From a phage: DNA of 64,000 nucleotides. Below the pieces are notes generated by a model. It did not search any database, had not been told where the DNA came from, and was given only the letters and a program-made list of their open reading frames with translations. The translations under genes were made by a program, and so were the position numbers. Where the stretch lies: NCBI GenBank assembly GCA_021469345.1, contig GCA_021469345.1_3049.1; one strand, given 5' to 3'. Of the stretch, positions 16,977 through 18,661 are shown one piece after another (the stretch's first letter is position 1; each line of letters opens with the position of its first letter).

Positions 16977-17945
16977 ATGAAAACTGTAACTATCAATAAG
17001 GGTATCTACTTCGGTAAAGAAATCTCTGGAACTTTTGAGCTCTTAGGTGAATGGTTCCCAGATAATGCTCCGGTAGATGCACAAGGAGATGGTAAAGTTT
17101 TTGTTGAAATTGACGGTAAACGTCGCGGTGTTTGGGTTTACAAATCAGACATTTCATATGATGGTGTAAAAGTTGAAGAAGTTAAAGAATCGTATGAAGA
17201 TATGAAAACCCGCATTAATAAAAGATTTAATGTTATGGGAATGATGACGAATGGTATTATTAATGGAAATATTCGTTCATTAATTATCTCTGGCGCAGCA
17301 GGTATTGGTAAAACGTATTCTTTAGATAAAGCTTTAAATAAAGCAAATGATAATGGATACATTGAATATAAAAGCATTAATGGTAAAATCTCTGGTATCG
17401 GTCTTTATGAACAGCTCTGGAATAATCGTGAAGAGAATTCTGTCCTTTTGATTGATGATGTGGATGTTTTCTCTGATATGGACATTCTTAATCTTCTAAA
17501 AGCCGCTCTGGACACTGGAGAGACCCGTAAAGTCTGCTGGAGCACTGCATCTTCTTACTTAGAAGAAAAAGGCATTGACCGTGAGTTTGAATTTAAAGGA
17601 ACGATTGTTTTTATCACAAACGTTGACATTGACCGCGAATTAGACCGCGGTACTAAACTTGCTCCACATTTACAAGCATTAGTGTCCCGCTCAGTTTATT
17701 TGGATTTGGGTGTTCACACCAATGAAGAAATTATGGTCAGGGTTGAAGATGTTATTCTTTCAACTGACATGATGCAAAAGCGCGGTCTTTCTGATGAAGA
17801 AACTTATAAAGCATTATCATGGATGAAAGTTAATGTTAATCGTTTACGCAATGTTTCACTGCGTACTGCTCTTTATCTTGCTGACTTTATTATGACCGAC
17901 AAAAATCATTGGGAAGAAATTGCTGAAACGGTATTATTAAAATGA
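16977..17945 (+). CDS. AAA+/P-loop ATPase (Walker A GAAGIGKT, Walker B LLIDDVD)
   Basis: trimmed to ATG 16977 with GGAGAA SD; motifs read from translation. Confidence 0.65.
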   Translation: MKTVTINKGIYFGKEISGTFELLGEWFPDNAPVDAQGDGKVFVEIDGKRRGVWVYKSDISYDGVKVEEVKESYEDMKTRINKRFNVMGMMTNGIINGNIRSLIISGAAGIGKTYSLDKALNKANDNGYIEYKSINGKISGIGLYEQLWNNREENSVLLIDDVDVFSDMDILNLLKAALDTGETRKVCWSTASSYLEEKGIDREFEFKGTIVFITNVDIDRELDRGTKLAPHLQALVSRSVYLDLGVHTNEEIMVRVEDVILSTDMMQKRGLSDEETYKALSWMKVNVNRLRNVSLRTALYLADFIMTDKNHWEEIAETVLLK

Positions 17946-18661
17946 AAAAATATTTTACTATCTATAAAACTGAAATATTAAATTTAAAGACAGGTATTAA
18001 GAAATACTATTATGGTCGACATATAACTAATAACATCAATGATTCGTATGTTGGTAGTGGAAATTATATAGAACGTGTAAAAGTGTCAAATGACCACATA
18101 TTATCAAAAACGGTTTTAGAAGTTTTTGATAATTATGATAAAATGGTACAAGCTGAAATATTATATATCATGGCAGGTAAATTGAAATATGGAAAAAACT
18201 GTGTTAACCTGTCATACGGGGGTGAAGGAGGAAAGGTTGCAGATGAAACTAGGATAAAATGCAAAAAGCATTCTATAAATTTATGGAAAAATCCTAATCA
18301 TATACAGCATATGAAGAAAAAGATGAAAGAGGTCACATCCACGCCGGAAGCTAAATTAAACACTTCAATAAAAACTTCGCAACGATATAAGGACCCAGTT
18401 TTTGTTAGAAAAGTTAGTAATATTATTAAAAAGAAACTAAGCAATCCTACAGTAAAAGAAAAGCATATTAATGGAATTAAAGCTGCAAAGCGTTCTCATT
18501 TAACTATATGGCAGTATGAAGATGAATTATTCGAGCTTTGGAAAGAAACTAAATATGGATGGAGAAAATTTACAAAGGAAGCTATAAAACACGGATATCC
18601 AAATGAACCGTATCGTAGTATGGTATCAACTTTTCAGAAAAGACATTTAGAAGAATCCTAA
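17942..18661 (+). CDS. GIY-YIG homing endonuclease-like protein, paralogous to SegB
   Basis: KKYYYG...YVGSG...NLSYGGEGG parallels KIYIG...YMGSG...NLKLGGEGG of the 10-675 ORF. Confidence 0.65.
   Translation: MKKYFTIYKTEILNLKTGIKKYYYGRHITNNINDSYVGSGNYIERVKVSNDHILSKTVLEVFDNYDKMVQAEILYIMAGKLKYGKNCVNLSYGGEGGKVADETRIKCKKHSINLWKNPNHIQHMKKKMKEVTSTPEAKLNTSIKTSQRYKDPVFVRKVSNIIKKKLSNPTVKEKHINGIKAAKRSHLTIWQYEDELFELWKETKYGWRKFTKEAIKHGYPNEPYRSMVSTFQKRHLEES

Follow-up and report, generated by a model that had tools for sequence, protein, structure and literature searches.

The 64,000-nucleotide (nt) stretch of phage DNA analysed here (GenBank assembly GCA_021469345.1, contig GCA_021469345.1_3049.1; referred to below as the window) carries, between the genes nrdC.10 and nrdC.9, an open reading frame (ORF) of 239 amino acids (aa) that sequence comparison supports as a freestanding homing endonuclease gene of the Seg family, within the GIY-YIG lineage. 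The gene sits in a cassette that is absent from T4, T2 and most of their relatives, and that supplies a substitute 3′ end for nrdC.10. We consider it probable that the gene is established at the nrdC.10/nrdC.9 junction as a homing endonuclease gene and has spread by intronless homing. A first-pass annotation of the window had described the ORF as a freestanding GIY-YIG endonuclease inserted between an AAA+ ATPase gene and small downstream ORFs, and both the identification and the insertion were borne out. The identification is correct but ordinary, as the gene is already annotated in public genomes; the additions made here are small, and concern the anatomy of the junctions, the replacement of the nrdC.10 tail and the faithfulness of diverged homologues to this site.

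Identity of the 239-aa ORF

A 4.8-kb stretch around the ORF was 97–98% identical to many Tequatrovirus (T4-like) genomes, identifying the window as Tequatrovirus DNA, with its + strand corresponding to the T4 minus strand. The gene order in the matching stretch of RB32 is nrdC.11, nrdC.10, RB32ORF093c, nrdC.9 and nrdC.8. An ORF listing confirmed both nrdC.10 and the 239-aa ORF on the + strand. The three genes at the junction are:

16977–17945, + strand: nrdC.10, 322 aa from its ATG (phrog_1250, matched end to end at 2.7e-166; annotated as nrdC.10 in RB32 and T4)
17942–18661, + strand: predicted Seg-family endonuclease gene, freestanding, 239 aa, intact (phrog_314; PADLOC HEase; annotated copies; homology to T4 SegA–F)
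18744–19046, + strand: nrdC.9 (DUF7203; Pfam 4.8e-15; annotated in T4 and RB32), directly after nrdC.10 in empty-site phages

The 239-aa ORF matched phrog_314, "homing endonuclease", at 1.9e-30 and the PADLOC HEase models at 5e-8; only homing-endonuclease models matched. When compared with the T4 proteins by phmmer, it matched SegA (1.6e-12), SegE (2.2e-12) and SegB (2.4e-12), followed by SegF (8e-10), SegC (2e-8) and SegD (3e-8). The SegB-like protein encoded at 10–675 of the window was 27% identical to it (E = 7e-13). The two had been called paralogs in the first-pass annotation; the homology holds, while the term is loose for two members of a large family. (The SegB-like gene is itself nearly identical to T4 SegB by alignment and lies in the tRNA region, as in T4.)

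When 1.84 billion representatives were scanned exhaustively with HMMER, 1423 relatives were returned at E ≤ 1e-3. Only one of these, P0003 (46% identity), was a close, full-length representative, and the 239-aa ORF is therefore a divergent twig of a large family, several members of which match it in the C-terminal region only. A family alignment was built from 42 sequences, comprising the 239-aa ORF, the SegB-like protein of the window and 40 of the 1423 relatives. Pfam GIY-YIG or SegE_GIY-YIG matches were found in 12–16 of the 42, including the SegB-like protein, and NUMOD3 matches in 13, the 239-aa ORF itself having none. By these comparisons, the homology to the Seg proteins is real and not a chance pattern. 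In a word-index search, which returned two clusters only, one relative, P0002 (197 aa), seemed to be truncated at its N-terminus. The DNA of its locus (L056, 3872–4594; Logan SRR25011262) revealed a short gene call instead: the full-length ORF starts at an ATGA overlap with nrdC.10, and its N-terminal domain is intact.

The records of RB32, T6, RB14, RB51, AR1 and dozens of other phages already list the gene as a putative endonuclease, either seg-like or homing. At the DNA level it was 99–100% identical to RB32ORF093c, labelled in GenBank as a "putative site-specific intron-like DNA endonuclease" similar to seg, and to the T6, RB14 and RB51 copies. AR1 and RB68 annotate it as "segE", a similarity-based misnomer, since T4 segE sits between inh and uvsW. 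Among the papers searched, none names or characterises RB32ORF093c or a seg gene at nrdC.10/nrdC.9.

Structure of the cassette and its junctions

The extent of the cassette was defined by comparison of eight occupied with eight empty genomes:

17927–18657, + strand: cassette-specific DNA, 731 nt, in place of 34 nt (GGTTACTCTTCTGAAATAATTCATAAGAGGACTT) of the empty allele
17925–17945, + strand: alternative nrdC.10 3′ tail, GAA ACG GTA TTA TTA AAA TGA (ETVLLK*), in endonuclease carriers only
18658–18664, + strand: right junction CTAAGAC, with the endonuclease stop TAA (18659–18661) within sequence shared with the empty allele

At this site, T4 has nrdC.10, a spacer of 94 nt and nrdC.9. The 34 nt that are replaced run from the final codons of nrdC.10 into the beginning of the spacer. 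The sequence of the occupied allele is ...GAAGAAATTGCT GAA ACG GTA TTA TTA AAA TGA(AAAAATAT...) ... GAAGAATCC / TAAGACAAAAAGGCAG, and that of the empty allele ...GCT GAG GTT ACT CTT CTG AAA TAA TTCATAAGAGGACTTC / TAAGACAAAAAGGCAG. The cassette brings its own version of the last six nrdC.10 codons, such that ETVLLK* replaces EVTLLK* or TVTLLK*, and the endonuclease ATG overlaps the new nrdC.10 stop codon as ATGA. At the other end, homology to the empty allele resumes at the endonuclease TAA. Both junctions were identical in all eight occupied genomes compared.

The ETVLLK tail was found in every one of the occupied genomes and at the distant locus L056, where it is one base off (GTT for GTA). 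A GAAGTTAC..CTGAAATAA-type tail (AEVTLLK*-type) was present in all eight of the sampled empty genomes and in 36 further seg-less T4-like loci. The first-pass annotation had proposed looking for the empty site in related phages, and a precise empty junction was seen in T4, T2, RB27, Sf22 and others; this comparison shows that the cassette is inserted DNA when T4, T2 and most relatives are taken as the reference. An Rfam scan of 15000–21000 found no family, group I introns included.

Two minor observations concern the nrdC.10/nrdC.9 spacer. An inverted repeat, GGCAGT..(19 nt)..ACTGCC, lies at 18670–18700, before nrdC.9; it has no T-run after it and is found in empty and occupied alleles alike. 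In the record of phage SCS4 (ON506924.1; L051), a run of Ns falls exactly in this spacer (locus ~1480–1520).

Distribution, diversity and selection

A 280-nt probe for the empty T4 junction matched 503 phage records; the match was contiguous (empty) in 435 and split in 68. The 239-aa ORF occurred in 67 records, always once and in the same place, at ≥95% identity. About one in seven close T4 relatives has the cassette, T4 itself being without it, and no third junction state was seen among close relatives.

Flanks, diversity and substitutions were compared in eight occupied genomes, with eight empty genomes added for the flanks. Within 25 nt upstream of the junction there are four haplotypes (examples: AAAAATCA..ATT, AAAAACGG..ATC, AAAAACCA..ATT and AAAAACGG..ATT), each of which was found both with and without the cassette, and no single-nucleotide polymorphism (SNP) in the 900 nt on either flank correlated with its presence. 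The mean pairwise divergence was 1.2% for the cassette, compared with 2.35% for nrdC.10 and 3.15% for the right flank. Among the distinct substitutions separating the eight copies, 18 were synonymous (138 sites) and 8 non-synonymous (579 sites), corresponding to a ratio of non-synonymous to synonymous rates (dN/dS) of ~0.11. There was no non-synonymous change in codons 1–107, and all six substitutions in the catalytic domain were synonymous. The window copy is intact, and these counts show a signature of purifying selection. Two other copies are degenerate: RB3 has a 7-nt insertion, leading to a stop at codon 97, and AR1 a 1-nt deletion, leading to a stop at codon 166. This combination of haplotypes, diversity, selection and decay is what would be expected of a homing endonuclease gene with current or recent activity and occasional decay.

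Catalytic residues and predicted fold

The protein was divided into three predicted regions, based on the alignments and on AlphaFold2 (AF2) models:

17942–18232, + strand: N-terminal GIY-YIG-type catalytic domain, aa 1–97 (alignments; hhalign to I-TevI; AF2 model)
18239–18511, + strand: helical linker with four ~17-aa repeats (..W/x-x-x-P-x-x-K/R..), resembling the NUMOD3-type repeats of relatives (AF2 helices 101–190)
18512–18658, + strand: C-terminal helical domain, presumed to be DNA-binding, common to SegA, SegF and SegG (alignment columns ~250–330)

Conserved columns were taken from the 42-member alignment and from an alignment with T4 SegA–G, I-TevI and I-TevII. The 239-aa ORF keeps all of the invariant or near-invariant residues: Y8, Y23, G25, H27, D34, Y36, G38-S39-G40, E72, N89, G93-G94 and G96. 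The YxG...YxGSG...NLxxGGEGG motifs on which the first-pass annotation had relied are real and fall in family-conserved columns, GGEGG being residues 93–97. On alignment with T4 SegA–G, the check proposed in that annotation, and with I-TevI, the GIY tyrosine, the YIG tyrosine, the catalytic glutamate and the metal-binding asparagine were all present in the 239-aa ORF, so that the lack of catalytic residues named there as refuting was not observed; specifically, hhalign paired Y8, Y23, G25, E72 and N89 with Y6, Y17, G19, E75 and N90 of I-TevI. The YYG sequence is followed by R26 and H27, only the latter of which is conserved in the family.

In the AF2 model of the full protein, which had a predicted local distance difference test score (pLDDT) of 94.8, a β-β-α-β-α domain at the N-terminus is followed by a long linker of helical repeats and then by a small helical domain at the C-terminus. 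In a model of the N-terminal domain alone (pLDDT 92.2), the elements were β (4–14), β (20–29), α (41–47), β (52–62) and α (65–86), an order that is compatible with the GIY-YIG fold, in which helices flank a three-stranded sheet. Besides the AR1 and RB3 fragments and the T6 protein, which is identical, a Foldseek search against viral models returned many Seg-like endonucleases, with E values from 1e-13 to 1e-5.

nrdC.10 and expression of the endonuclease gene

The following features were noted in and just upstream of nrdC.10:

16912–16940, + strand: early-promoter-like site, TTTACA, 17 nt, TACTAT, with TG (consensus scan), just upstream of nrdC.10
17292–17315, + strand: Walker A motif GAAGIGKT of nrdC.10, aa 106–113 (read from the translation)
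17445–17465, + strand: Walker B-like motif LLIDDVD of nrdC.10, aa 157–163 (read from the translation)

The longest nrdC.10 ORF spans 16959–17945, with a GTG start at 16959; the annotated start is the ATG at 16977. The Pfam AAA/STAND matches (E from 1e-4 to 1e-3) were all under the curated cut-offs, the best scores being 22.3 bits against a cut-off of 27.2 for nSTAND3, 22.3 against 32.6 for AAA_16, 21.4 against 27 for AAA_22 and 20.8 against 27 for AAA_14. Searches of nrdC.10 gave no PDB sequence match and no PADLOC match. The Walker motifs of the "AAA+ ATPase" of the first-pass annotation are thus present, while the AAA+ class is weakly supported. Because Pfam is below threshold and neither a PDB relative nor a PADLOC match was found, "P-loop NTPase, AAA-like" is the safer description of this conserved protein. 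As a separate matter, the T4 reference sequence (NC_000866; L002, ~54343–54370) has one extra G in nrdC.10, in the part corresponding to 17920–17945 of the window, ACGGGTTAC compared with ACGGTTAC in L004 and SCS4; the resulting frameshift gives T4 nrdC.10 a unique tail, ...TGYSSEINS*, in place of the conserved ...TVTLLK*.

The promoter-like site at 16912–16940 is the likely source of a transcript carrying both nrdC.10 and the endonuclease ORF. It has near-identical copies at 16433–16461 and 19050–19078, and a terminator is found at 16383–16402, after nrdC.11. No TATAAATA late promoter was found within 5 kb of the endonuclease ORF, no Shine–Dalgarno sequence is evident before its ATG, and no stable RNA structure of the kind that would occlude the ribosome-binding site (RBS) was predicted over the start codon (z = 0.49). 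With neither a late promoter nor a structured start codon, delayed expression in the style of I-TevI was rejected in favour of simple coupling to nrdC.10. In several freestanding endonuclease genes of T4, start/stop overlaps have been read as translational coupling that keeps the level of nuclease low (Edgell review, PMC2988022). By analogy, coupling to nrdC.10 presumably has the same effect here.

Site fidelity and candidate target

A set of 37 nrdC.10 loci was fetched from a viral-contig collection; 36 of them were seg-less T4-like loci, with nrdC.10 60–99% identical in protein sequence to that of the window. In all 36, nrdC.10 ends GC(T/A) GAA GT(T/A) AC. ... CTG AAA TAA (GC(T/A)GAAGT(T/A)AC...CTGAAATAA), encoding AEVT(L/M/Q)L(K/R)*, and the genes 3′ of it differ widely. 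In the more distant T4-like phages (L007–L039), a G+C-rich hairpin usually comes directly after nrdC.10, with unrelated genes beyond it. Given this variety, the nrdC.10 3′ end is a general boundary for variable cargo and not just a seg site.

Homologues 43–46% identical to the 239-aa ORF occupy the nrdC.10 3′ junction in two distant contigs. In L056, where nrdC.10 is 78% and the endonuclease 43% identical to that of the window, the tail (GAAACGGTTTTATTAAAATGA) and the ATGA overlap match the window bar one base, so that 20 of the 21 nt of the substitute tail are conserved between its two lineages. In L053 (nrdC.10 74%, endonuclease 44–46% identical), a near wild-type tail is followed by the endonuclease ATG 8 nt later, and recoding of the tail is therefore not obligatory. 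The fidelity of the endonuclease lineage to the nrdC.10 3′ end makes the conserved tail the most likely recognition region, and we propose with modest confidence that this end is the target of the enzyme.

A more speculative view is that the cassette is a self-contained "repair-and-immunise" unit, in which the substitute tail would keep nrdC.10 intact, erase the ancestral recognition sequence and serve translational coupling, the lineage having stayed with the nrdC.10 3′ end while the host protein diverged by at least 25% and the endonuclease itself by ~55%. We consider this possible but on balance doubtful. Should it prove correct, the cassette would be a compact natural case in which a freestanding homing endonuclease gains target-site immunity by recoding.

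Proposed homing and alternative explanations

Intronless homing into the conserved 3′ end of nrdC.10 is the likely mode of spread. The endonuclease gene would be co-transcribed with nrdC.10 from the early promoter at ~16912 and translated at a low level by termination–reinitiation coupling. In a mixed infection, the enzyme would cleave the seg-less allele within or close to the strongly conserved 3′ end of nrdC.10 or the spacer, and recombinational repair off the seg-carrying genome would copy the cassette in, causing local marker exclusion. The carrier would be protected because the cassette replaces or splits the target sequence. nrdC.10 would then serve the nuclease as host gene or target, not as its partner. 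There is precedent in the freestanding endonucleases of T4, for which start/stop overlaps, cleavage at distant sites and co-conversion have been described (PMC2988022), and homing has been described for SegB (PMC2330249).

Several points weigh against this interpretation. No co-conversion tract was seen in the flanks, where no SNP within 900 nt on either side follows the cassette. Recurrent loss, by recombination with empty alleles, could also produce the patchy distribution. The near wild-type tail of L053 weakens the idea that tail recoding gives immunity. Cleavage by characterised Seg enzymes is often distant from the site of insertion (PMC2988022), and the 34 nt that are replaced may therefore not be the target. 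As to the enzyme itself, the 239-aa ORF directly matched no Pfam family at E ≤ 0.01, GIY-YIG and SegE_GIY-YIG (PF01541/PF19835) included, and no NCBIfam family at E ≤ 0.1, TIGR01453 included, and its membership of the GIY-YIG lineage consequently rests on transitive homology. The I-TevI profile match was only moderate (probability 61%, E = 8e-5), with the segment around I-TevI Arg27 (22–30) gapped in the profile of the whole Seg family and not just in the 239-aa ORF. Foldseek comparison of the full and N-terminal models with the PDB found no GIY-YIG structure (best E ~0.6), and PDB sequence searches with the 239-aa protein alone and with the family profile gave no relevant match.

The first alternative is that of a resident, domesticated Seg-like protein that benefits the phage, whether by competing with co-infecting phages or by promoting recombination-driven amplification of neighbouring genes, as recently shown for SegB, with the patchiness reflecting loss and not gain. 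The low dN/dS, the long residence at one junction while the protein diverged to 43–46% identity, the tight integration with nrdC.10 (shared tail, ATGA overlap) and the lack of visible co-conversion tracts would all fit such a role. Moreover, T6, which also has the 239-aa ORF, encodes a SegB that was reported in 2026 to drive segmental amplification of anti-defence loci, including gp49.1–nrdC.1 (PMC13096335). However, the tail of the empty allele is conserved across all of the distant T4-like phages, so that the empty state looks ancestral, and the cassette shows less diversity than its flanks and resides on at least four flank haplotypes. The frameshifted RB3 and AR1 copies show that the cassette is dispensable. 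Benefit and homing are in any case not mutually exclusive. We regard domestication in place of homing as unlikely.

The missing curated-model and PDB matches, the lack of a residue aligned to I-TevI Arg27 and the degenerate copies in related phages would also be consistent with a protein that is catalytically dead or not of the GIY-YIG type, either a decaying relic or a DNA-binding Seg look-alike whose resemblance is historical. The window copy is nevertheless full-length and keeps every residue that is invariant in the 42-member alignment and in T4 SegA–G, a set that includes biochemically active enzymes (Edgell review, PMC2988022), and the synonymous nature of all changes in the catalytic domain argues in the same direction. 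Likewise, the gap at Arg27 is common to the whole Seg family, including the demonstrably active SegB. A dead or non-GIY-YIG protein seems quite improbable.

Pairs of an ATPase and a nuclease are common in defence systems, and the ATGA overlap suggests coupled expression. A functional module of nrdC.10 and the endonuclease, for example in defence or counter-defence, was rejected as scarcely credible, however, since nrdC.10 occurs without the endonuclease in 435 of the 503 close relatives and in 36 of the 37 fetched loci, nrdC.10 has no PADLOC match and the nuclease matches homing-endonuclease models only, and overlap with the upstream gene is typical of freestanding endonuclease genes in T4 (PMC2988022).

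Comparison with known endonucleases

The 239-aa ORF most resembles T4 SegA, SegB and SegE, which are of similar size (205–224 aa), have the N-terminal motifs Y..Y-x-G-x-H-S/T..D-x-Y-x-G-S-G..E..N..GG-x-GG and the helical repeat linker in common with it, and are likewise freestanding genes of the early region that overlap or abut an upstream gene and are patchily distributed among T-even phages. The C-terminal ~50 aa align with those of SegA, SegF and SegG. On the other hand, the ORF is just 21–29% identical to any T4 Seg protein, and whereas SegB reaches the Pfam GIY-YIG models, the 239-aa ORF stays under threshold. Its locus also differs from that of every T4 seg or mob gene in the table of insertion sites in the Edgell review, none of which is at nrdC.10/nrdC.9 (PMC2988022). 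RB32ORF093c and its copies (T6, RB14, RB51, RB33, AR1, RB3 and others) are the same gene, with 98–100% DNA identity and the same junctions and neighbours.

T4 mobE (nrdA/nrdB) and segF (gene 56) are likewise freestanding, with starts that overlap the end of a conserved upstream gene (PMC2988022); the overlap is 11 nt for segF with gene 56 and 4 nt for mobC with nrdD. MobE differs from the 239-aa ORF in being an HNH enzyme, and the present cassette differs from both mobE and segF in that it also takes the place of the last six codons of the upstream gene and encodes them anew. With I-TevI, encoded in the T4 td intron, the ORF has the aligned catalytic Tyr, Tyr, Glu and Asn and the layout of catalytic domain, linker and DNA-binding domain in common. 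The two are only 16% identical, however, and the 239-aa ORF is not intronic, has no zinc finger and no Arg27 helix segment in the alignment; neither a late promoter nor an RBS-occluding hairpin was found for it.

The significance of the gene goes little beyond its correct annotation. It would mark the nrdC.10/nrdC.9 junction as a homing site, explaining one presence/absence difference between T4/T2 and T6/RB32-type phages, and would lead one to expect marker exclusion close to nrdC.10 in mixed infections. As an uncharacterised Seg member with a candidate target in the conserved nrdC.10 3′ end, it would extend the GIY-YIG toolbox by one specificity. On a small scale, the substitute nrdC.10 tail neatly illustrates how a freestanding endonuclease gene can be embedded without damage to its host gene.

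Neighbouring features

The interval 16383–16965, between nrdC.11 and nrdC.10, holds a cassette of two genes, a 49-aa ORF (16498–16647) and a gene for a DUF4031 protein (16644–16907), which is not in T4 or RB32 and explains the 10% of the query that was unmatched in most hits. It is preceded by the terminator hairpin at 16383–16402 and bracketed by the near-identical early-promoter-like sequences at 16433–16461 and 16912–16940. Both genes were found ~2–3 kb downstream of nrdC.10 in the T4-like loci L010, L011, L014 and L018, and the DUF4031 gene alone at a similar distance (~2–3 kb) in L025. The cassette looks like a shuffling module flanked by promoters and stem-loops.

The gp49.1–nrdC.1 segment lies a few kb downstream of the nrdC.10 region. 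Following nrdC.9, nrdC.8 (19107–19630; 175 aa) is broken near 19301 by a 4-nt deletion relative to RB32 (ACGAATAAAAATCG to ACGAAAATCG), which splits it into ORFs at 19107–19379 and 19415–19630. The broken gene is either a pseudogene or the result of a sequencing error.

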